A DNA stretch of 63,851 nucleotides, counting the filler, from Basidiobolus ranarum (taxonomy: Eukaryota): NCBI GenBank assembly GCA_040143965.1. It is 17 parts of 17 records of this genome, joined end to end, with 100 filler letters (N's around TTAATTAATTAA, not from the genome) between each part and the next. Parts side by side here need not be neighbours in the genome. Positions count along the whole stretch, not along the records: positions 37,666 to 41,323 come from JASJQH010009223.1; 16 more parts are not named here. One strand, written 5' to 3'. Below the pieces are notes generated by a model. The model was not told where the DNA came from. It did no database searches and saw nothing but the letters and a program-made list of their open reading frames with translations. Made by a program: the position numbers and the translations under genes. Numbering within the stretch: the stretch's first letter is position 1; every line of letters begins with the position of its first letter. This document shows, in pieces, positions 4,356 to 54,506 of the stretch.

Positions 4356-7300
4356 TTATTCAGACCCACTACCCACTCCTAGACCTACGCCTAAGCCTGT
4401 ACCTGCTAGTACACCAGCACCAGCACCTGTACCAAGACCCTCGCCTAAGCCTACACCTGCACGCGCACCTATTCCTGCTCCTGTGTCAAGGCCAACACCT
4501 GCTAGTACACCTGCTCCTGTACCAAGACCTACGCCTAAGCCTACACCTGTAAGCACACCTGCCCCTGTGCCAAGGCCTACTCCTACTCCTTTATCAAGAC
4601 CCACTCCTGTGGCTGCCTCTGTTCCCAAACCAGAGCCGGTGGAAATCCGTCCATCTGAACACTCCACTTCTCGTCAATCTAGTACCAGATCACCCTCACC
4701 TACACTGGATATCAGCCAGGGGGGATCTATAAGAGATCGAATCAAAAGATTACAAATTGCCAATAGTAAAGATGCTGAGGGAGAGAAAAGTAAGAATCCT
4801 ATACTTCGTAGAAATCCTCTACCATTCAAAGAACAAGTAAAAGAGCCAGCAAAGAAGGAGTTCAAGCCGGAGAAAATAGAATCTCCCTCCGATAAAGAAG
4901 TGATCTATGCTGAGGTTACTCATAATTTTATTGGAACCGAAGAAGGAGATTTATCTTTAAATGTTGGAGATAAGATAGTCGTCATTGAAAAATGTATGTC
5001 TTCCTATATTGATGAGCCTACCTGTATATTAGCCAACCTGTACAATAACTAATCTTATTTTATCTTTTAGCTGATGCAAATTGGTGGCGCGGTGAACATA
5101 ATGGAAGATGTGGCGATTTCCCTGCTAACCATGTGAAAGAAATGTCAGTATCATTGTCCACTATGAATATCACTTTTCATACTTATAATCTATCAATTCG
5201 TAGAGAGGGCAGTAGGAATGAAGTGACGAAGCGACCTAGTAGCTTTATTAGTAATAATGGTAGCAACTACTCTAAGCCTAAACAAGAGAGTGCCGTACCT
5301 GTGAACCAAGGGTAACCGTCTAGTATACTTTTCGAATGAAAACGATACTTTTTCAAATACTAATCTAGGGATTCTTTTTAGTTCGTAAACACTAGATTAT
5401 CAAAAGAATTCACCATTTCATTAATTCTAACTATATTGAACAGCAATTGTTGTGCCAAAAGTTGAACAGCTGAAGATTCCCACCAAGCCACGCGGTGTTA
5501 CGGCCAAGGCTTTGTTTGAGTATAACGCTTTACAGGACGACGAAATATCTTTTCAACCTGGAGATTTGATATCAAATGTCTACAAAATTTCCGATGATTG
5601 GTGGTGTGGAACACATCCAGTTCACGGTACGGGAACATTCCCCCTCAACCATGTCGAATTATTGTAAGTGGTCATTAATCCGAGGCCAGTGTGATATCAT
5701 AAGGCTCATCTCCTTGTTTACTCCAGGAAAATCAGTCCCAGTAGTCCGGAGCCCAACCCGGTCAACGAGCAGAACTCTCGTAATAGTAACAACTCAACCA
5801 AACCACGTGAGCGTACGTCAACCCCCACTCCAGAACCTGAAGAATCTCCAGAAGATGGTATTCGTGCACAGGCGTTGTATAGCTTTACTGGGACCATGGA
5901 GGACGAGGTATCCTTTGTGGAAGGAGACATGTTAGTGGATATACTGAAGGAGTCGGAAGACTGGTGGTGCGGTACTCACGCTATAAGCAAGCAACGGGGG
6001 CTATTCCCAGCCAATCATGTAGAAGAGATGTAAGTAGAGTAGTCAGCTCAGTGTACCCTGCAGTGAAGTATCAATCGTAATGTTTAATGTGTACATAGTG
6101 TTGAAGAGCCCATCCATGATTACTGGGTTCCAGGCTTTCCACATTGGAAGGATGTCACTGAACCAAAGCATACTAAACTGATTTTCCAAGGTAACCAAAT
6201 CCTAATAAACATAAAACATCCACTTTACAAACTAAACGAGATCGTATACTATGCGGAATAGAATCGGATTTCGTGGAGGTTGATCAATATGCTAGAGATA
6301 CTCCCCAAGAGGTCACTCACGATCTTAAACGGTTGACGAAATATCTGATTCAACCATTCGATTCAGAGCTCTGCCAAATTCGAAGTATATTTGTTTGGAT
6401 TGCTGATGTGAGTAAACAGCCCATTCATCCACCACCGTAGCGTTAACTTAACAGCTTCATCTCTGATTCCATTACAGAACATTTCTTATGATGTGGATGG
6501 CTTCCTTTCAGGAAATATTCCGGATCAGTCAGCAAAGAGTACTTTACATTCTAGATCATCCGTGTGTGAAGGATATGCAAACTTGTTCCAAGAGATGTGT
6601 GAAATTAGTGGCATATATGTGCAAAAGATCCATGGATATAGTCGAGGTAATTAGAGTCTTTCAGGTTGTTGCATTCTCTTATTAACCTTTGATTGACGAC
6701 CAAAGGGGCTGGTACTGATCCTTCCACTGAATCCAGAGGGCCGTTGGGGAGTAACCATGCTTGGAATGTTGGTGAGTAAAGAAATCCTCGATCTGGGTCC
6801 TTGTACCGAAACTAACGAGTTGGCTTTTGTAGTACGCATTAACGGTGTCTATAGAATGATTGATAGCACCTGGGGCGCAGGTAGATTTTGTTAAGGTTTG
6901 ATATTGAGACGATTGAAGGCATAGAGTTAATAGTTTATTTTACAGGTCATTTGAACAACGGAAGTTATCACAAGAAATTTAGCCCGTTCTACTTCTTGAC
7001 TCTACCAACACTATTCATTTGCAATCATTTCCCACTCGAATCACCTCACTTGCAATTCATCACCCCTCATGCTAAAGAGGAAGAGTTCCGTCAATTACCA
7101 TTTGTATCGGGGATATTCTTTCAATTAGGATTGAAATTTTTGAGTACCCCGGGAAATCTCTTAAGGATTGATAAACACACTTCTCTACCGCTTGAGTTTC
7201 ACTTGGGTATTACCAGACACACCAAGATTACGGCCAGGTTGGAAACCGAAGGAAGAGAGGAGAAAAATGGCGTTCTTTGTCTAATCGATCATTCGAAAGA

Positions 7301-7447
7301 AGTGAGTACTGCAACTGTGTTGGTGTATCCTCCCACTGTTGGTAAATGGAATATTCATTTATTTGGAGATAATGAATCTGGTCATTCCCTCTCGATGATT
7401 GGTTCAACTCATCTCGATATTGCCTCTCTACCCTATGCTCAAGCCCC
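4356..7447 (+). CDS. Multi-exon gene, incomplete at both ends: Pro/Thr-rich repeats, three SH3 domains, transglutaminase-like (Cyk3/KY-family) domain
   Basis: SH3-1 AEVTHNF...GDLSLNVGDKI/NWWRG...GDFPANHV; SH3-2 AKALFEY...WWCG...FPLNHV; SH3-3 AQALYSF...WWCG...LFPANHV. TG-like region RSIFVWIADNISYD, VCEGYANLF, NHAWNVV, IDSTWGAG, YFLT.P...NHFP. Exons are joined by GT-AG introns. Confidence 0.88.
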
Positions 7448-7894
7448 NNNNNNNNNNNNNNNNNNNNNNNNNNNNNNNNNNNNNNNNNNNNTTAATTAAT
7501 TAANNNNNNNNNNNNNNNNNNNNNNNNNNNNNNNNNNNNNNNNNNNNCTTTCTTTCCACTATAAGTATGTACAAGGAGCATGCATACCACAGCAACATAG
7601 AATTGAATAGCTGGCATTTGTAGTAGGAATTGTTGCAGAAAATTTGTCTGAGTAGAGAGCTTCTCATTTTGCTCTTTATAAGCGATTATTTTTCTTTACT
7701 GAGATACTAACATTGGTATGAACATATATACTATCCTCACTCGAAATGAGTATCCGATATTACTATTTTACTTCTTGCTAAAGCGGTTTGCACAATTGTA
7801 TATGCGATTGATGCTTCCTTAGTGAGGTTTGAATATAAGTTCAGGAAGTTAGACAAGTCCTTAGCTCAATAGATACATTTCTGAATTTATTTGT

Positions 7895-28498: not shown

Positions 28499-29811
28499 AT
28501 GTTCATGTCCAAGTCTGTCCCTGCTGCTCTTAGAGTGTTGCGCAACACCGCTCAGGTATAAATGAATCTATTTGTATCCCTCTCCATTATCTATCCTTCT
28601 TGCCACATCAAATATCATGAGCCCACTTGTACTCTGAGTTTATGCTAAAATATAATGCAAATTTTAGTTCTCCGCTGTCAGAACTTTGGCTACTGCCACC
28701 ACCGGTCCTGTTTTGAACAAGAACCCTGCCACCGTAAGTCCCTCTTAAATTGTGTATACTATATTTTTTTATAAAGCAAATCGCTCACCTTTGTTAATTG
28801 ATAAAGGGCAACTATGTTGTAACTATGATTCCTGGTGATGGTATCGGTCCTGAGATTTCCAAATCTGTAAAAGAAATCTACGCTGCCGCTAACGTCCCAA
28901 TTGAATGGGAGGAGGTTGATGTCACACCTGTCATTAGAGAGGGAAAGACCGTCATTCCTGATGAGGCTCTTCACTCTGTCCAAAAGAACAAGATCGCCTT
29001 GAAGGGACCTTTGGCCACCCCTATCGGTAAGGGTCACGTCTCACTCAATTTGACTTTGAGAAGAACTTTTGATCTCTACGCCAACGTCCGTCCTTGCAAG
29101 AGTATTGTTGGTTACAAGACACTCTATGACAACGTCAACACTGTCTTGATTAGAGAAAATACTGAGGGTGAATACTCTGGCATTGAACATGAGGTTATCG
29201 ATGGTGTTGTTCAATCCATTAAGTTGATTACCAGAGAAGCCTCTGAGCGTTGCGCCAGATACGCTTTTGAATATGCCGTTGCTAACGGACGTGAGCGTGT
29301 TACTGCTGTCCACAAGGCTAACATCATGAAGATGTCTGACGGACTCTTCTTGAGTGCTTGCCGTGATATTGCCCAGGAGTATCCTCAGATCAAATTCGAT
29401 GACGTTCTCCTTGATCGTGCTTGTCTGCACGTTGTTCAAGACCCACACATCTATGCTGATGCTGTCATGGTCATGCCTAACTTGTATGGTGATATCATCT
29501 CCGACATGTGTGCTGGTTTGATCGGAGGTTTGGGTCTTACACCTTCAGGAAATATTGGTAAATCTGCCTCTATCTTCGAGTCTGTTCACGGTACTGCTCC
29601 CGATATCGCTGGTCAAGACAAGGCCAACCCTACTGCTCTTCTTCTCAGCTCTGTCATGATGCTTCGTCACATGAAGCTCGAACCTTTCGCCGATACTATT
29701 GAATCTGCCGTCCTCAAGACCATCGCTGAGGGTAAGACACTCACTGGAGATTTGGGTGGTAAATCTACCAATTCTCAATTCACCGCTGAGGTTATCAAGA
29801 ACCTTGCTTAA
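28499..29811 (+). CDS. IDH2: Mitochondrial NAD-dependent isocitrate dehydrogenase, catalytic subunit (3 exons)
   Basis: Presequence [28 protein letters not shown] over two short exons; then [46 protein letters not shown] (metal-binding Asp residues kept), [13 protein letters not shown]. Confidence 0.95.
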
Positions 29812-37037: not shown

Positions 37038-37836
37038 CTAAACATAAGCTATTCCAATCAAGTAACTATTCAATTATGGCATCAGAGGTTTGGCCATATT
37101 GGATTTGATCATTGGCATAAAATGAAGAGAAATTGCCTAATTTGTGGATTTCAAATTAACCCCCAAGTCAAAATGGAAATTTATGGGGGTTATAATTATG
37201 GAACACGAGCCACACAGCTGCTAAAGAGCTCTGGCTTAGTCAAATCTGACAAAAAGTTGGATCCAATTCATTCAGATTTGTATGGACCTGTGCAAAATTT
37301 ATCTTGAGGCAGAAAAAGATATTTAATCACATTTATTGATGATTATACAAGATATACTTGGGTCTACTTTATGGAAAGAAAAGAAGAAGCTCTCTCTATC
37401 TGTAGAGATTTTAAAACACTTGTGGAGACTGAAACTGGAACTAAAGTCAAGAAAATGTCACAATAAGGAACTGGACAAGGACTGGGAACAACGACAAGAG
37501 GCTAGAAGGCAGGAGAGTACTTGGGTGTAGACCACAAGACAAGACAAGACAGGACTGGACAAGGANNNNNNNNNNNNNNNNNNNNNNNNNNNNNNNNNNN
37601 NNNNNNNNNTTAATTAATTAANNNNNNNNNNNNNNNNNNNNNNNNNNNNNNNNNNNNNNNNNNNNCAATTCCTTTTTCTTGACCAAATTTAAAGTGTTTA
37701 GTATTTTCAGATCAGTTTGTGGAATAAAAGTTTATTTTCAAGGTTGATGTTTCAAACAATCTATGACTACAATTTGAAGGATCGAATTGATACTCCACTA
37801 TAATTGATATAAATGGAGGAGAAGCCTAGATAGCAT

Positions 37837-38049
37837 CTACATCTCAACAGAGGAACGACGTGAAGAAAAGCCGGAATCCATATTAAGATCAACTTCAGGG
37901 GTGAGACGGAGGAAGGTCAACCCGGTAAGCTTTGGTACACGTACTTTCTTGGGAGATTCTATGAAAATTGGAAGTTTTACTTCGAGTGAATCTTCTTCGG
38001 TAAGACGAAGAAAGCTAGTTGGTTGGTTCTTGTGAATCAATTCTTGCAT
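37837..38049 (-). CDS. FLRLTP-repeat microprotein 1 (70 aa)
   Basis: SFLRLTEE and TFLRLTPE, C-terminus SRRSSVEM; TATAAA about 65 nt upstream; paralogous to three neighbours. Confidence 0.82.
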   Translation of the reverse strand: MQELIHKNQPTSFLRLTEEDSLEVKLPIFIESPKKVRVPKLTGLTFLRLTPEVDLNMDSGFSSRRSSVEM

Positions 38050-38944
38050 TTGGAGATGTTTGGTGAAGTTGTAGTTGCTTGAATATAATTAATAAGGAGG
38101 GGGCGCATTGAGACTTTATAGAAAGTATGTCACGAAGATAAGAATCCGAGTGGAAAAAGTCCTATTCAGATTTTAAGGAGCCACAGTTAGAGATTCCTAT
38201 CTTATCTGCACTGTGCAGTTAACAGTGTTTCTAGATAGATAGAAAGTGAATTTCTCCTGGTATTTACATGAATCGACGCGCTTGGTAGTGATATTCTCCA
38301 CCCGGTGGTTTTACTTTAGATAAGAACGTTGATTTAGAGTGGTGTTAATGAACTTTCGGATCCAATATACCAGCATTTAGAAAGTATTGATGATCTATGC
38401 AACGTTTTGTTGATAAACCACAATTCAGATGTTAGTTTTCATGGGTATTCATTAGAAAAAAGAGGCTGATTCTGTCTTTAAAGTTACTATTATCATCTAC
38501 CCAGGTTATGAGACATCTAAGAGATCGCTACCACTCGGAGGGCAAGTATTTTAGTTGAACATCTCTTCACAGAGGAAATCTTGAAACCTGTTAGGAAACT
38601 AGATATATACTACGCATAGAAATGGGATATTTAAATAGTACATTAGCGGTAAAGTATGATTGTTATCAGAACTAGAAACAGATGAATATATAATAATGTG
38701 AGTATGTTTTTAGTAATCAGAATTGCACAAATCTTTGATCGCAGGGTTTATTCACATACACGTAGTAGAAATTAATCTATCATCAGTCAATGTGTTAGAC
38801 GACGTAAAACTACTCAAACAAATCTTTAAAATGCACACGAAACCAATATGACTCAAATGTTCGGTTTATTTAACAGCAATAAAGATGTAGGTAATATAGT
38901 TCACTTCATAATATACAATCTTCGGGTTGATAGATTGTACGTAT

Positions 38945-39169
38945 TTACATTTCAACGGAAGATCTGCGAGATGTCTTGTGTGATTCTGTTGACATATCTA
39001 TCTCGGGTGTTAACCGCATGTAAACATTAGCACCACTTGGTCGTTTCTCCTCCACAAAGTTTTCTGAGCTGATCAATTCAAGTAGTAAAGGAAGCTCCAC
39101 AACTGCCGACTCCTCGGGGCTTAGTCGAAGGAAAGTCATTGGTAAATTCTTGTGAATTAGGCTTTGCAT
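38945..39169 (-). CDS. FLRLTP-repeat microprotein 2 (74 aa)
   Basis: TFLRLSPE and VYMRLTPE; shares the MQ.LIHKN.P start and SRRSSVEM end with gene 1 despite DNA divergence. Confidence 0.82.
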   Translation of the reverse strand: MQSLIHKNLPMTFLRLSPEESAVVELPLLLELISSENFVEEKRPSGANVYMRLTPEIDMSTESHKTSRRSSVEM

Positions 39170-39587
39170 ATCTGAAGAAGCGTGAGTGATGAGTGGCCAG
39201 GTAGATTTGGTTGAGATTGAGAGGTAACTTGGAGGAGTATTTAAAGGATTTGAGAGTTAGGAGGCGTGATCATAGAGGTTTCAATTATTATGGTTATCTT
39301 ACAAGTATTGCACAGCCTGCATACTTTCTATTTGCTGACTTATTCATTTTAATGGGATAAATAAAATATGGTTGAATCTAAAGTGGCGCCATCTAAACAG
39401 ACTGATTACTAAGTTATGAAGTGAAAGAAATTCAGTCACATATTTGAAACGGACCCCGATGTAATAGGATCTTTTGCATTAAAAGGAGTCACATTAGTAG
39501 TCATAGACAAGCAACGGTGAAAATTGATTTATTAATAGTTCGCCATCACCAAGAGCAGCCAGCCAGTCATTCGTGGGAATGCAGCAC

Positions 39588-40018
39588 TTTCCTCTAGAGG
39601 CATGGAGTTGCTTTTGTAAAATTCAATTCCAATCCTGTTTGATAACACGGGAGACGTTCGTTTAGAAACATACACGAAATGGGGATTTCCTCTAGGGGAA
39701 AACCGGCAGAACCAACACGCACTTTCCTCTAGAGGTCAACGGTTTCGCAGCTTCAGTGATTAATTTCATTTCTGTCCAATTCAATTCGGTTTCACTCTAT
39801 TACACCCTCAAATACTTGACAATAACCCTATTTGCTTTGCTAATGTAGTGGAATTGATATTGACTGAGACTAGAGCTGTCAATTGAATAGTAACACAATA
39901 GACAGAAACATTTACTCAGCTTCGATCCACCCGGAATCAAGTTACTAGATCCTTGCAGCGTGAGAATATGTGTGAATGGCGAATGCTCATTTCAAACTGA
40001 AACTATTTCCTCTAGAGG
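39588..40018. promoter_or_regulatory. Four copies of TTTCCTCTAG(A/G)GG in the divergent promoter of the microprotein cluster
   Basis: Copies at 39588, 39686, 39723 and 40006; the core CCTCTAGAGG is a perfect palindrome. Confidence 0.7.
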
Positions 40019-40279
40019 CAACCAGAGATGTGGATTCCCTTCTGTATGATGATTCAGTATTCTTTGTACGTAAAGCTATTTAGCTGAAACGTTCTTCCTA
40101 ATTTGGACTCCGTATACCGCAACCAATTAACGCTGGACTTGGACTCTAAGGATAGTTACCAAAGAATCCAATTTATGTGAAACAACAACACTCCGACGTC
40201 AAATTAAGCTAATCGAAGTCCTCTCGATTCCTATAAATTCTCTTCACTTGCTCTCTTCCAAACCATCAACTTTACTTCC

Positions 40280-40456
40280 ATGCAGCATTTATTAAGACCA
40301 GAAGCCACCGGACCATTCACCTTCCTTAGGCTCACCCCTGATGATGTGCCATCCGTTCCGAACGTTATACATGCACTTCAGGACTCTTCCGCTGCTCTAG
40401 AATCTCTCAATGGCTTTACTTTCATGCGCCTGACACCCCAAGAAACCGAAGCTTGA
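40280..40456 (+). CDS. FLRLTP-repeat microprotein 3 (58 aa; not in the ORF track)
   Basis: MQHLLRPEATGPFTFLRLTPDDVPSVPNVIHALQDSSAALESLNGFTFMRLTPQETEA; TATAAA at about 40232 and AATAAA at about 40504. Confidence 0.82.
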   Translation: MQHLLRPEATGPFTFLRLTPDDVPSVPNVIHALQDSSAALESLNGFTFMRLTPQETEA

Positions 40457-41012
40457 GCTGTTTCTAAATCACTTTGCATGTAAATAGTACCTCAATCTCA
40501 TCTAATAAATGTCTAAATGGAACTCTGCCAAGCACTATAATTTCTGCTTAGAAGAAGTAACGCTAAGCGCTTACAAAGAATGTTTCATATTTTCTTCGAT
40601 GTTGTGCATGGTTGTGCAGAAACCAGATATTTACTAGAGATTGCTATCAAAAAACTCTATTTCACGTGAAGTTCACTCAATCAAAGTCCCTGCGTATGAT
40701 AAGCTTGTATACATCCTAAACTTGTATTTACTTGAAGATAAGCCTTTTCTTAGTTGTTTGATGATAAAAAAGGAATTTATGTGAAATGCTGCATATTCAA
40801 TACCATTAAGGAAAGCTCCGCTCTTGCATTTTACTACGAGACGTAACCCTGGAGCTGAATTGATGACTACATCCTGGAGCTGTAGAGATCCAAAAGGATC
40901 TGTTCAAATATTCTTCGAATACTCCCCCACATGTTCTCTTGGTTGGTATATATAGCTCACTTTAACAACAACATAGTCATTGTTCAACTTCGAATTTCTT
41001 TAACAACACAAA

Positions 41013-41192
41013 ATGCGTACCTACTTAGATCAACCATTGACCTTTCTTCGCCTTACTCCCGTAGAATCACTTGAATCTTGGACTTCTCCAGAAGTTGCAC
41101 CAGATAACGACGTGTCGTTCGAACCAGTTAACAATCTCATTTTCTTACGTTTGACTCCAGAAGATGAAAATTGTGCAGAAACTATGGTCTGA
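41013..41192 (+). CDS. FLRLTP-repeat microprotein 4 (59 aa; not in the ORF track)
   Basis: MRTYLDQPLTFLRLTPVESLESWTSPEVAPDNDVSFEPVNNLIFLRLTPEDENCAETMV; TATATATA at about 40947, AAAATG start context, AATAAA at about 41258. Confidence 0.82.
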   Translation: MRTYLDQPLTFLRLTPVESLESWTSPEVAPDNDVSFEPVNNLIFLRLTPEDENCAETMV

Positions 41193-41650
41193 ACTACAAT
41201 TTTTCGAATCTTTTCTGCGTGATTTATCTAAATTGTCATCATAAGTTACAAACATCTAATAAATGATATACAATCCATTGAAACCCCATTTGCAATGAAA
41301 ATTTAGTCAAGAAAAAGGAATTTNNNNNNNNNNNNNNNNNNNNNNNNNNNNNNNNNNNNNNNNNNNNTTAATTAATTAANNNNNNNNNNNNNNNNNNNNN
41401 NNNNNNNNNNNNNNNNNNNNNNNCTTGATTTTTCCATGTTTGGCTCAAATCTGGGTGATATTGGGCAAGATTCCACACAGTTTTTAAAATGTTAAACCAC
41501 TCATCTTCAGAGCAAGTGATGGCAGCTCTGACATTCACAATCTTTTGATTTGCTGGTTTTCCTATAAGATCTATACTTTCTTGTGCCTAAGCAATTTTGG
41601 GTCATGGTGTGGGCTCAATGGTTCAACATATGTCTTGCTCCACTATATGG

Positions 41651-44600
41651 TGATAAAAGTATTGAGAGGATTTGCAAGTGTTTTGGACAAGATTTGGATT
41701 TATGAATTAGACACTTGAGTTTTATTTAATTGCATATGTCCTATTTATAGTTTACTATGAAATAGGACTACTAGACGTGCTTAGATCATAACAAGCATGC
41801 CTGTTAAGCATGGGTGAATATTTGAGATGATTTGGAGAAGTTTTGAGAAAATAGTGAAAATTGGTGAAAGTGATCTGATTGATATTTCTATCAATTAGAG
41901 CAATAAACACACGTTTTTGAATGACAGAATTGAGTGCTAAATAATCAGAATATGAATAGACTAAGTACTTAATAATGAGTTGCTACTTACCTAATTTCAA
42001 CATTCCCACTAAACTAATTGTTTTGTATTTCTCTCAAACCTAACTTATATCTTAATAATTCAAATTGTGCTTTAGATAAAAGTTTGGTTAAGATATCAGG
42101 TATCTTTTCTTCAGTATGGCAATAGACAGGTTCAATTATATCATTCCCTATTGCTTCTCTTACAAAATGATGCCTAATATCTATATGCTTTGTTCTAGCA
42201 TGAAATGTAGGGTTTTTAGCTAATGAAATACAACTTTGATTATCTTAAAATACAGTAATAGCATGTTTTTGCATGTATCCTAAGTCTGTAAATAGCTTCC
42301 TTAACCACATACCTTCTTGTGTAGTAGCAGAGTCAGCCATATACTCTGCTTCTGTAGTGGAAAGTGCTATGGTTGGCTGCTTCTTACTATTCCAAGTTAT
42401 GGCTCTATTGCTATAGGGAAAAGTGTACCCAGTTGTTGATCTTCTAGCATCAAGGTTGCTTCCCCAGTCTGCATCACTGTAGCTTTCAAAATGTAGTGCA
42501 TCAGGAGTGGCAGAGTACTCCAAAACTAGATCACTAGTTCCTCTCAAATACCTGAATATTTGTTTTACTGCAGTGTTGTGCTCAGATCCAGGATTTTTGG
42601 GATATTGGCTGACAACCAATGTATATATTGAACTACCCACCATGGATTGATAAGGGAACTCCTGGCTTTGATTTTATTCATATTGGACTAAATTGGCCAA
42701 AATTTGAGTTAATTTTGCACTAGTATCCATTGGCATTGATACAGGCTTGCTATTCTCCATGTTGAGGTGTTTTAGAATGTCTAGGATGTATCTAGACTGA
42801 TTCAGCATGATTTTCTGATTGGGTTTATCTCTCTTGATTTGGACTCTAAGAAAATAACTTAATTCACCCATATCAGTCATCTGAATTTGGTTTGATAAAC
42901 TACTTTTTGTCTGATTAAGTGGTTCCAGATCACTTGTGGCTATGATAAAGTCATCCACTTATAGTGCCAATATCAGGATCCTATTTCCTGTTGTTTTGAT
43001 GTAAATATGGTGATCTGCTGTGCATTTTTGGAGTTTCAGAGATTCGATATGGGAGCCATCTTGTTGCTTTTTCCCATAATCTTGATTTGGGACACTCCAG
43101 AGTTTGATCTGGAGTCTGTGGTGCATCACAGAATGCTGCATAAGCATATACAGCATCATTGGAAGTGTTCTACTAGTGTCATGGCTTATTTCTCCTACTG
43201 GTTGATCTTCTGGGTCCTGAATCATCCTGAGATGCAATTGGGACTGGAATTTTGCTTGAATAGGACTCAGATACGGCTGGAATTTTGCCGGACACTTCCT
43301 GTATACTGATGATTGTGTTTTCTTGATCGAGAACTGTGATTCAAGGTGAAAAATTTGCTTTTTCATCAAAGATCACATCTCTGCACTTGATTAACTTCTG
43401 ATTTTTGGTATCAAACAGTCTGTAAGCCTTGGATCCATCACAGTAACCAAGAAATATGCATTTTCTGCTTTTGGGTTCCAGTTTTGAGCATTTTTGAGCT
43501 GCAATTTGGCAATATGCTGTTCAACCAAAGATCCTGAGATGATCTGCACTTGGTTTTGATCCATATAGGGCCTCAAATGGAGTAGAATTTTGTAGCAATC
43601 TTGTTGGGCATCTATTTTTGATATAGACTGGAGTGGAGACAGATTTAGCCCAATAATGGTAATCTAACTTCAGATCATGTAACATTGCTCTTGCCATCTC
43701 CACTATGGTTCTATTAGCACATTCTGCAACTCCATTTTGCTGTGCAGTATAAGGTACAGTAGTTTGTTGCTTAATTCCACATGTTGCTTAATTCCATGTT
43801 TACAGTAAAAACTAGCAATGTCTTTAGAGCAATATTCTCCACCTAAACTACTCCTTAGTACCCTTATTTTTTGTGCTGATTCTTTCCCCACCATTCCTTT
43901 GTAGTGCTTGAATGTAGCTAAGGCTTCAGATTTTGATTTGAGAATGAATACCCAAGTATATCTTGTTTTGTCATCAATAAAGGTTATAAATTACCTTTTC
44001 CCACCTAGTGAGACATTTTTCATGCGCCCACATAGATCAGAATGAATCGGGGCAAGATTCTAAGTGGATCAGATCTCTCCAGAGCATGAAAATGGCTGCC
44101 TGTGATGTTTTCCATGTATGTAACCTTCACACCAATCCAATTTGGTGATATTTAATTTACAAATCTGAAACAAGCTGATTTTGGATCATTTGGGTCAGTT
44201 TTTTTCCCCAATGTGGCCTAATCTTATATGTAACATTTGACAGCTTATTTCACCTGTTTTGGCCAAGTTTGCATGCTCAGAATGGAATTTGTTGATATCT
44301 AGCTTTTACAAGTTTTGAGTTGATCCCAGTAGCTAACTTTATATTATTCAGATCTGTGATAGTGCATCCAGCCTCACTGAACAGGAAATTTAGTCCTTGA
44401 GTTGTTGCTTGGCTTACTGAGAGTAGATACTTGGCTATGTTTTGTACCTTGGGTGCAGCATTTAATTTTGCAGACAGTGTAGCTGAAATTTGGTCAAATT
44501 GAGTACAACTGTGCCCTTACCTACAGCATCTAGTTCATAGTCATCACCTAAGTAAACTTTCCTTGTTTGGATTGGTTTTAAGCTGGAAAACCAATCTTTC

Positions 44601-45080
44601 CTGTTTAACTTATACTGGAAAGCTCCTGAATCAATGCACCACATTTCTGAGTCTTCTTTAGTGGTTACTGATAGGGCAGACACAAACAGATGATCTCTAT
44701 CAGTGCTTACTTGATTTGTTTGTTCCAATTTAAGCTTTCTGGCAAAAAGCCTTTTTCTGCAATATTTGATTAAATGGCTTGGTTTCTTGCAAAACTTGCA
44801 GATGATTAATCTCCTAATAGGGTCATCAATATTGCAGTCTGTTGAACGTTTTACAGTACCCAAAAATGCCTGTTCTGCACTATTTTGCTGAGAATTAGAT
44901 CTCCTTAATTCTTCATTCAAAAGCCTAGCACATACATTTTCCATTGTTAATGGCTCTGATCTTGATTCAAAAGCAATTATGAGGTTCCCATGCTTGTCTG
45001 GCAGGCTCCCAAGTAGTGTCATGACTAAGTCATCCTCATTTAGAGGTGCTCCAATGGATGAGAGCTGATTTGCCATAGTT
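41651..45080 (-). mobile_element. Degenerate copia (LTR family A): gag-pol with internal RT deletion, PPT and 3' LTR
   Basis: gag with CKFCKKPSHLIKYC, protease WCIDSGA, integrase, RT (ILAL*VDD, TDMGELSYFL), RNase H (YSDADW, IALSTTEAEY), PPT AGTGGGAA, LTR 41651-42002. It abuts a copy of the CACTA-associated sequence. Confidence 0.93.
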
Positions 45081-45180
45081 NNNNNNNNNNNNNNNNNNNN
45101 NNNNNNNNNNNNNNNNNNNNNNNNTTAATTAATTAANNNNNNNNNNNNNNNNNNNNNNNNNNNNNNNNNNNNNNNNNNNN

Positions 45181-52440: not shown

Positions 52441-54506
52441 GAGCTCCAAAAACCCTAACAGAAATTTGAGGATTGTTATCATAGGAAAACCGTCACAATT
52501 TTAATCCATTTGGGGTCAACCGTTTACTTACCATCATAAAATCGTCAAGTTAGATTTGATTTTAATCAATTTTTTCAGTTTCAGGAGTGAAANNNNNNNN
52601 NNNNNNNNNNNNNNNNNNNNNNNNNNNNNNNNNNNNTTAATTAATTAANNNNNNNNNNNNNNNNNNNNNNNNNNNNNNNNNNNNNNNNNNNNTAAATCCA
52701 GCTCAATACTTAAGATGACTGCATCGACTACCTGCGTATTATTATATGCTGAGTTACCCTCATTAGTAGTCCACCCGTGTAAGGCACACCACTGCTGGTC
52801 ACTCATACCTTCCACGCTGCGATACGCAGAGTTGACTTGAAAGCTACGTGGCGGGGTATCCCATAAAGGTCTAACTACATATCCAAAATCACGCCAAAGT
52901 GTAAAAATGTTACCGAAAAGTAAAGTACATAGAAAGAAACACTAATTACGAAGTTACTAAGGGAGTTGTGATGACTGTTTTGAGGAGATCAAAAATTTGT
53001 CTTTTCTCAACATTATTGACCTATATATACTATCGCTCAAAACTGATTCACCTTTTTGCATGCATATCTCGTCATTTACACAACTATTTTAACTACATAT
53101 ATATAAAGAAAATGCTGCTTTTCAGCCATCAATTTATTAAAGGTCACTTCTGAAATAGTACTTTCTCCAACATCTTCATAATTTGCTAAGTGTTGGTGAA
53201 AAAAATGTCTGGATCAGAAATCAAAGTTGAAGAGGCCATGTTCTGTTACGATTATAGCTGAAAATACATGCACCAAAAATGAGCTCTATTCAATGGAATA
53301 TCTCTAGCAGCTTAACAGATTGCATACAAGCTAATTGAATGGAATGTGGTGGCACCAAAATCTTTGAAATTGAGAGCAAAAGTTTGTGGAACTAAAATCT
53401 CAATATATAGCTGATAATGTACAATCTTAGTGTAAAAAACAAGTTGCGCTCAAAACTGATTCACTCGCTGCTCTGAATATAAGTGTGTATAATATCGCCA
53501 AGATGGGTGGAATCACTTTCATAACATGAAGGGCTGTCCTTTAGGTTCTGCTTAAGCAGTGTGACAAATAGCACGCTAAAACATTGAGTAAATGACGAAG
53601 TATTGTCATTTGAAAAGTTCATGCAAAAAATGAATCAGTAATGAGCGCTAGTGTATCAAGTCATCTCAACTTAGGAAATGGTTCATGCGCGGACAATACT
53701 TAATCTCAAATTGAATGAATATTTAGCTCCCCTTAACACCGACAGTAAGGAATTCTTGGTAGGCGTTATTCTAAACACAATTTCAATATGTATTCTATTT
53801 TTTTGATTGTGGTGGAGACTCTGCATCTTCAATATTTTCTACGGCTTACGCTTTATGATCATTCGATGTTCAATCTTATGAATACTGTAATTAGAAGAAG
53901 CGCCGTTAAGTACCAAAATATATGAAAAAGCTATAAATTTCATATCAAGCGAGTCAATCGATGAATGCCCGAATTACAAATAGAATTAAATTTTTCAAAA
54001 AAATAACAGCAATAGTGTAAAGTAATGGTAATAAAGACATTAGCTTACAATGGAACTCCTAATTACTTGAATGTGAATAAAGTGAACAAGGTCGCAATGT
54101 GTAACTGCAAGATGCGATGCAGCTAGAGTAGAAGATTTGCTGTGCATTACTTGGCATGCCAAATTGAAGCCTCCTGTTTTGCGGGAACTGGCTACGCTTA
54201 GCCATTTTACATTTGACTGCTAAATCTCGCTTGGTATTTCCAATTATTAAGCATATATATACCTAAGACAATTTGATCGAACAAGATCATCCTCGATTTT
54301 TTTATTGATCTTTTTTATCTCTTTTTCGTTAATTTTTTCGGTAGGTGTTTATTACCATGAAATTGATAACATACGTTCTCAGTCTACCTTGTCAAGTAAT
54401 TTACCATCAGATGTTACCCTAAGGGTTTAGGTTACTGCAGCCACTTTTGAGTATGATTTATAAGCACAGTGGATGTATTTATTTAAGCTTAGAATCATGA
54501 ATGTAC

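Follow-up and report, generated by a model that had tools for sequence, protein, structure and literature searches.

Four microprotein genes on one short contig

The DNA analysed here, called the window, is a stretch of 63,851 nucleotides (positions 1-63851) of the Basidiobolus ranarum genome, made of 17 contigs of 3652-3674 bp, placed in order of length with N/ttaattaattaa/N spacers between them. Genes on either side of a spacer are not linked in the genome, so that only the contig at 37666-41323 (3658 bp) counts as genomic context for our subject, a cluster of four paralogous genes encoding microproteins that each carry two copies of an FLRLTP-type motif. An original prediction, made from the sequence, had described this cluster as a candidate undescribed system of four intronless open reading frames (ORFs) of 70, 74, 58 and 59 amino acids (aa), arranged <- <- -> ->. 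The description of the ORFs is accurate: all four run from ATG to stop, with coordinates and strands as predicted.

37837..38049, minus strand: g1, 70-aa microprotein gene; motifs SFLRLTE (core 37999-38013) and TFLRLTP (37900-37914); C-terminal SRRSSVEM
38945..39169, minus strand: g2, 74-aa microprotein gene; motifs TFLRLSP (core 39119-39133) and VYMRLTP (39008-39022)
40280..40456, plus strand: g3, 58-aa microprotein gene; motifs TFLRLTP (core 40322-40336) and TFMRLTP (40421-40435)
41013..41192, plus strand: g4, 59-aa microprotein gene; motifs TFLRLTP (core 41043-41057) and IFLRLTP (41142-41156)

Counted from stop to stop, the frames holding the four genes span 103, 83, 82 and 62 codons, and every other frame of the contig has at most 76. 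A tRNA scan and an Rfam scan of the contig gave no match. As nothing but the four genes and their promoters lies on the contig, the word "system" was too strong.

The motif is maintained at the protein level

The whole window, scanned in six frames for [FY][LM]RL[TS], contains 10 matches. Eight are in the four ORFs, two per ORF, and read exactly as the original prediction had listed them; the other two stand alone at 53836 and 55267, on another contig. Base shuffling led to an expectation of 1.89 +/- 1.58 matches, with a maximum of 7 in 100 shuffles.

The varied synonymous codons of the motifs had been taken as a sign of selection on the protein, and both points stood up to counting. Arginine is written CGT, CGA, AGG, CGC or CGG, and leucine with six codons. 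By Nei-Gojobori counts on a codon alignment, synonymous sites are saturated in every pair of genes (proportion of synonymous differences, pS, 0.61-0.92). In the motif columns, the corresponding non-synonymous proportion, pN, is 0.12-0.33, giving a pN/pS of 0.14-0.38, compared with a pN of 0.35-0.60 in the remaining columns. The motif codons are thus under purifying selection while synonymous sites are saturated. The companion claim, that the linkers between the motifs are unrelated, was right in part. Linker sequences differ, except that g1 and g2 are 51% identical overall, with a pN/pS of 0.37 in their non-motif columns, and that linker length is kept (33 residues in four of five members, the fifth member being the homologue described below). 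An MQxLIHKN start and an SRRSSVEM tail are common to g1 and g2 and absent from g3 and g4. The cluster arose via old duplications, and its closest pair is g1/g2.

Codon usage was compared among the six frames of each ORF, using three Pfam-supported genes of the window as reference and 500 non-coding samples from the same contig as control. For all four ORFs the annotated frame had the best usage of the six, 1.7-3.9 standard deviations (SD) above the non-coding mean, g1 being the highest at 3.9 SD. Outside the motif-coding stretches (which include the first 62 nt of g1 and g2), DNA similarity within the contig is limited to terminal repeats, a promoter element and one weak 25-nt match (E 0.79). 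With so little other similarity, the repetition of the motif is not a DNA-level repeat. Taken together, these sequence properties make it very probable that all four ORFs are genuine and encode proteins.

A relative in a second species shares the architecture

A profile of the four proteins was searched against 5.8 billion clustered proteins, restricted to lengths of 31-130 aa, and, in a second search, against each of 1.84 billion representatives. Both searches returned the same five proteins, namely the four themselves and one outside relative, the hypothetical protein K493DRAFT_309999 (P0005) of B. meristosporus CBS 931.73, with E values of 3.4e-5 and 1.1e-5. Once included in the profile, this 61-aa protein scored 1.4e-21. 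An iterated search with the B. meristosporus member added found no new members, as the five of 1528 candidates at E <= 1 were all known.

Like the cluster proteins, K493DRAFT_309999 has a short N-terminal lead, a TFLRLTPEE, a motif-to-motif distance of 33 residues, an FMRLTPE and a short acidic tail. It differs from them in belonging to another species and in being only 27-37% identical, with nearly all identities in the motifs; being uncharacterised, it adds conservation and not function. The same architecture and the same 33-residue spacing in this protein indicate that the architecture predates the split of the two Basidiobolus species.

No named family had been recognised in the original prediction, and Pfam, the Protein Data Bank (PDB), the protein profile searches and the literature all agreed with this. 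Pfam-A assigned no family to three of the four proteins and gave the fourth a chance-level Fucose_iso_C match (E 0.23, 11.6 bits against a cut-off of 29.3). The PDB profile search gave a single chance-level match, to an antibody light chain (E 0.12). From the ESM Atlas no usable feature match was obtained, and its structure matches are meaningless, as they were based on a model with a predicted local distance difference test (pLDDT) score of 0.39. The strings FLRLTP, FMRLTP and FLRLSP were not found in the searched literature, and literature searches on Basidiobolus brought up background papers only. The term "undescribed" therefore holds in that no characterised family or paper corresponds to these proteins, with the reservation that one member was already deposited, as the B. 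meristosporus hypothetical protein.

Thus the earlier observation is confirmed and its interpretation partly supported, in that the family is real and unnamed. Judged from the databases searched, the microprotein family has so far been seen only in the genus Basidiobolus, and genes this short are rarely annotated. Conserved microproteins below the usual annotation cut-offs have rarely been documented in early-diverging fungi, and here the sequence by itself gives unusually clean evidence that four such genes are real: the motif has been retained despite saturation at synonymous sites, and a second species has the same architecture. On the other side of the scale, taxonomically restricted small gene families are common in fungi. 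What we have is a good experimental lead rather than a discovery, namely a genus-restricted microprotein family, undescribed but of a familiar general kind. Its present practical value is modest: it supplies one definite motif, one definite spacing and a candidate element in a promoter, which can all be tested directly.

Motif architecture and predicted properties of the proteins

In the alignment of the four proteins, M1, P10, the F-L-R-L of motif 1 and the R-L-T-P of motif 2 are invariant. The extended form of the motif is roughly hydrophobic-x-[FY]-[LM]-R-L-[TS]-P, followed by acidic residues. Counting back two positions from the aromatic residue, 8 of the 10 copies in the five proteins have a hydrophobic residue. 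The acidic residues noted in the original prediction follow every copy, eight of eight in the window and ten of ten with B. meristosporus, the next six positions holding 2-3 acidic and no basic residues. Motif copies end in proline in 7/8 cases in the window, and in 9/10 with the B. meristosporus protein. In most members motif 1 follows P-x-[TS] and motif 2 follows N-G-hydrophobic; these different upstream contexts, each conserved, indicate that the two motif positions are distinct and old. The distance from motif to motif is 33 residues in g1, g3, g4 and the B. meristosporus protein, with differing linker sequences.

The absence of a signal peptide and of a transmembrane segment, also predicted, was supported by hydropathy only: the maximum 19-residue Kyte-Doolittle mean is 1.19, and within the first 22 residues the maximum 8-residue mean is 0.26-1.24, the N-termini being polar (MQELIHKNQ...). 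By this measure the proteins are probably not exported by the classical route. Isoelectric points are 4.05-6.56, and each protein has 0 or 1 Cys. The C-termini are RSSVEM, RSSVEM, PQETEA, CAETMV and EGAPKC, without a CAAX box. Dibasic pairs occur in g1 (residues 34 and 64) and g2 (residues 42 and 68), none being found in g3, g4 or the B. meristosporus protein, and none adjoins a motif. AlphaFold2, run on the five-sequence alignment, gave a mean pLDDT of 65 and a predicted template modelling (pTM) score of 0.16, with no helix or strand, and the ESM Atlas model of g2 has a pLDDT of 0.39. On these models the products are predicted to be unstructured, acidic to near-neutral proteins of 58-74 residues.

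Flanking signals and a repeated element in the divergent promoter

TATA-like and AATAAA signals had been reported to flank the genes. This is so for all four, the TATA-like sequences lying at -48 to -76 and the AATAAA at +48 to +101. AT-rich DNA often contains such signals, which by themselves are weak evidence.

38115..38120, minus strand: TATAAA of g1, 71 nt 5' of the g1 ATG
39238..39245, minus strand: TTTAAATA, TATA-like, of g2, 76 nt 5' of the g2 ATG
40232..40237, plus strand: TATAAA of g3, 48 nt 5' of the g3 ATG
40947..40954, plus strand: TATATATA, TATA-like, of g4, 66 nt 5' of the g4 ATG
37731..37736, minus strand: AATAAA of g1, 101 nt past the g1 stop
38865..38870, minus strand: AATAAA of g2, 75 nt past the g2 stop
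40504..40509, plus strand: AATAAA of g3, 48 nt past the g3 stop, within the 13-mer CATCTAATAAATG
41258..41263, plus strand: AATAAA of g4, 66 nt past the g4 stop, within the 13-mer CATCTAATAAATG

The 13-mer CATCTAATAAATG around AATAAA is common to the 3' flanks of g3 and g4. Each gene would be transcribed as a separate unit.

The divergent region between g2 and g3, 1.1 kb long, contains a feature that the original prediction lacked, a 17-mer present in four copies on the same strand, with a palindromic core, CCTCTAGAGG.

39584..39600, plus strand: element copy 1, 17-mer GCACTTTCCTCTAGAGG with palindromic core CCTCTAGAGG, in the divergent g2/g3 intergenic region
39682..39698, plus strand: element copy 2, GGGATTTCCTCTAGGGG, in the g2/g3 intergenic region
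39719..39735, plus strand: element copy 3, identical to copy 1, in the g2/g3 intergenic region
40002..40018, plus strand: element copy 4, ACTATTTCCTCTAGAGG, 262-278 nt upstream of the g3 ATG

Allowing at most one mismatch, the 12-mer core occurs in the 63.8-kb window only within 39584-40018, at four sites that amount to 7 matches when both strands are counted. The expectation was 0.43 matches, and none of 100 shuffles gave more than 3. Repetition of a palindrome within the divergent promoter shared by the inner pair suggests that one dimeric DNA-binding factor drives g2 and g3 together, with the element as a candidate shared cis-regulatory site.

MADS-box factors (SRF/Mcm1) bind CArG-type sites, CC(A/T)6GG, and the palindromic Mcm1 site is preceded by TTTCC. 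The core CCTCTAGAGG is likewise palindromic over 10 bp, with six bases separating CC from GG and TTTCC before it, in four copies. A strict CArG site was not found: the sequence is CC-TCTAGA-GG in three copies and CC-TCTAGG-GG in one, with G/C inside the central six bases. As these six bases are not A/T only, the MADS-box resemblance serves as a lead and no more. A heat-shock element was rejected for the promoter repeat, the 5-bp nTTCn/nGAAn units not fitting. The papers listed as containing the promoter 12-mer are on unrelated subjects.

An identical 13-mer, AATTTATGTGAAA, is present at 40170-40182 and 40774-40786, upstream of g3 (-110) and of g4 (-239). Either chance or a second promoter element shared by the two genes could explain this.

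Proposed intracellular regulators with two docking motifs

The reading that we place first, and hold tentatively, is that the products are intracellular disordered regulators that dock via their two motif copies. Disordered, bivalent short-linear-motif regulators were one of the two possibilities raised in the original prediction. The disorder models and the fixed spacing with a varying linker fit this proposal; the mode of action is inferred only. The proteins would stay inside the cell and act through the motifs alone. Given the fixed spacing, both motif copies would dock at once on a two-site or dimeric partner, and the role would be that of a small regulator, competitor or adaptor. The Thr-Pro of the motif, in its acidic context, could form a proline-directed phosphorylation switch, and the RRSS tail conserved in g1 and g2 could provide a second, basophilic-kinase input. 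In that case, the motif would lead to a docking site, so far undescribed, on one of the signalling enzymes of Basidiobolus.

As an analogy of mechanism only, small disordered yeast regulators can be cited (Sml1/Hug1/Dif1, Igo1/2, and RCAN-type inhibitors), which likewise have fewer than 100 residues and no fold. In these proteins one or two short conserved motifs dock on an enzyme and are switched by phosphorylation, and the genes are often lineage-specific paralogues. No sequence relation was found between them and the cluster proteins.

Known docking patterns were compared with the motif. The LIR/AIM (Atg8-interacting) pattern, taken as a [WFY]-x-x-[LIV] core flanked by acidic or phosphorylatable residues, is fitted by all ten copies as [FY]-x-x-L with acidic residues after it; this pattern is very permissive, and leaves the R, T and P unexplained. 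By eye, none of the RxL cyclin docking, PP2A-B56 LxxIxE, PP1 RVxF, calcineurin LxVP, 14-3-3, anaphase-promoting complex (APC/C) D-box or class 1a nuclear export signal (NES) patterns fits all copies. The Cdc4/Fbw7-type T-P-x-x-[DEST] fits 7 of the 8 window copies and neither B. meristosporus copy, and was not relied on.

Several points weigh against this reading. The spacing in g2 is 37 residues and not 33, and motif 1 of g1 carries E where the others have P. The disorder predictions rest on a shallow 5-sequence alignment, and could simply reflect a lack of information. Conservation rests on two species, with a single homologue outside the contig. The docking reading and the kinase sites seen in Thr-Pro and RRSS draw on general consensus motifs. 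No copy of the promoter element is found upstream of g1 or g4, even at three mismatches. Finally, conserved boxes with a variable middle are also a signature of peptide precursors.

Less likely readings: peptide precursors and structural strands

The second possibility of the original prediction was that the proteins are peptide precursors. In one form, they would be leaderless precursors whose twin boxes are recognition or cleavage sites (cut, for instance, after the conserved Pro, by the logic of MSDIN peptides) around a variable core of ~26-30 residues. In the other, each box would itself be one of two copies of a short mature peptide, as happens in multi-copy pheromone precursors. The product would be a ribosomally made peptide with post-translational modifications (RiPP) or a signalling peptide. 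Taking both forms together, we consider this rather unlikely. The terminal Pro of 7/8 boxes in the window (9/10 with B. meristosporus), the clustering of several diverged paralogues and the lack of a signal-peptide-like N-terminus, as in cytosolic MSDIN-type precursors, all speak for it. Against it, the distance between boxes is fixed at 33 residues in 4/5 members and the g1/g2 linker is under purifying selection (pN/pS 0.37), both untypical of a hypervariable core. At ~28 residues the core would be long for a substrate of a prolyl oligopeptidase, the members have at most one Cys and no recurring pattern of modifiable residues in the linker, and dibasic Kex2-type sites are absent in 3/5 members and never lie beside the boxes. 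As the original prediction had remarked, no tailoring enzyme is visible: the 3658-bp contig has no peptidase or tailoring gene and no frame above 103 codons.

The comparison with MSDIN (cycloamanide) precursors of Amanita and Galerina goes both ways. These too are small, intronless-looking, clustered paralogues without a signal peptide, having conserved flanks, a variable middle and, in most copies here, Pro at the boundaries. MSDIN precursors have a Pro right before the core and another as the last core residue, and are processed by a dedicated prolyl oligopeptidase of the POPB type. The MSDIN leader is absent here, where the N-termini are MQxL or MR; the middle is ~28 residues of fixed length, versus a variable core of 6-10; and the same box stands on both sides, instead of a distinct leader and follower. 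Pfam and profile searches reported no sequence similarity between the two, and no prolyl oligopeptidase gene is visible on the contig. Basidiobolus is a gut-associated, early-diverging fungal genus noted for its rich secondary metabolism. That the cluster represents a new class of cytosolic leaderless precursors, with twin boxes cut after Pro and a ~33-residue segment released or cyclised, so that each paralogue would give a different peptide, seems to us quite improbable. Such a class, if real, would extend MSDIN-like ribosomal peptide logic far outside the Agaricomycetes, and precursors of this type would be the first ribosomal peptide family of their kind in Zoopagomycota.

Other small fungal proteins with a repeated short unit and variable spacers include Kex2-processed repeat proteins (KEPs), ustiloxin-type RiPP precursors and alpha-factor-like precursors. 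Membership in these groups was rejected, as the N-termini are not signal-peptide-like by hydropathy and no dibasic site adjoins any motif. An a-factor-type lipopeptide pheromone precursor was also rejected, the CAAX box being absent from all five C-termini. KEPs are defined by an ER signal peptide and by repeats separated by Kex2 (KR) sites (PMC7329392). The same study credits B. meristosporus with 43 KEPs, the most among 1461 fungal assemblies mined, which is background on peptide richness only (PMC7329392).

Another proposal is that the motifs are structural, each hydrophobic-x-F-L-R-L-T stretch forming a beta-strand paired either with its twin or with copies in other molecules, and the proteins folding or oligomerising as they assemble. 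The extended motif does have an alternating hydrophobic pattern, in two copies per chain, and paralogues able to co-assemble are co-located. We give this proposal little probability: in the AlphaFold2 model of the monomer no strands pair, conservation extends over just ~8 residues, and a strand that pairs with itself would not usually have an internal Arg, a terminal Pro and an acidic tail.

An inverted repeat at both ends of the contig

The two ends of the cluster contig carry an inverted repeat that was absent from the original prediction.

37667..37690: left arm of the 24-nt terminal inverted repeat, in the g1 3' flank
41299..41322: right arm of the 24-nt terminal inverted repeat, in the g4 3' flank

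The arms are complementary at 23 of 24 positions, each starting at base 2 from its end. Over 40 positions, the ends of this contig are complementary at 27, versus 7-13 for the other 16 contigs, so that the feature is unique among the 17. The statement that the contig has no recognisable transposable element (TE) thus needs qualifying: no transposase or long ORF is present, but the 24-nt terminal inverted repeats (TIRs) are one TE-like feature.

Whatever the function of the proteins, the 3.66-kb unit could be, or lie within, a mobile or repeatedly duplicated TIR-bounded element, with the microgenes as cargo. The complementary ends, unlike those of the other 16 contigs, have the terminal inverted repeats that define TIR DNA transposons, and contigs stopping exactly at repeat ends would be expected of a multi-copy element in a fragmented assembly. 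We nevertheless regard this as improbable. TIR DNA transposons also encode a transposase or, if non-autonomous, occur as multiple copies with target-site duplications; here there is no transposase and no ORF above 103 codons, and no second copy exists among the other 16 contigs, blastn having found no similarity between them and the cluster contig. Furthermore, the repeats occupy comparable places in the 3' flanks of g1 and g4, ~147 and ~107 nt past the stops, so that they could be a conserved 3'-flank element of these inverted paralogues, or the inner edge of a larger palindrome. The terminal repeat may belong to a transposon-like or duplicated unit, form the inner edge of a palindrome that extends further, or be a 3'-flank element conserved between g1 and g4.

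Least of all do we believe in chance ORFs or a non-coding DNA repeat from which no protein is made: the ORFs are short, but amino acids are conserved despite saturation at synonymous sites (the motif uses 5 Arg and 6 Leu codons), codon usage is frame-specific in 4/4 ORFs, a homologue in a second species has the same architecture, and DNA similarity outside the motif-coding stretches is limited to the terminal repeats, the promoter element and the weak 25-nt match.

Other contigs of the window

Elsewhere in the window, a fragment of a Copia-type retrotransposon lies at 44462-45124 (minus strand), with Pfam matches to Retrotran_gag_2 and Pol_BBD. A 61-aa ORF at 37122-37307 (plus strand) looks by eye like a retroelement gag-pol fragment, also of Copia type; both lie on contigs neighbouring that of the cluster and not on the cluster contig itself. 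An ORF at 6885-7499 (plus strand) matches a KY-like immunoglobulin-like domain (PF23265, E 1.1e-8), which is unexpected in a fungus.

A further contig carries, at 28798-29811, an intronless ORF for an NAD-dependent isocitrate dehydrogenase whose product has 100% identity with a B. ranarum protein and at most 84% with its best matches in other species, which are likewise zygomycete fungi. A second B. ranarum protein, encoded on a 15-kb contig, is 96% identical to this product, which suggests duplicated or heterozygous genome content.

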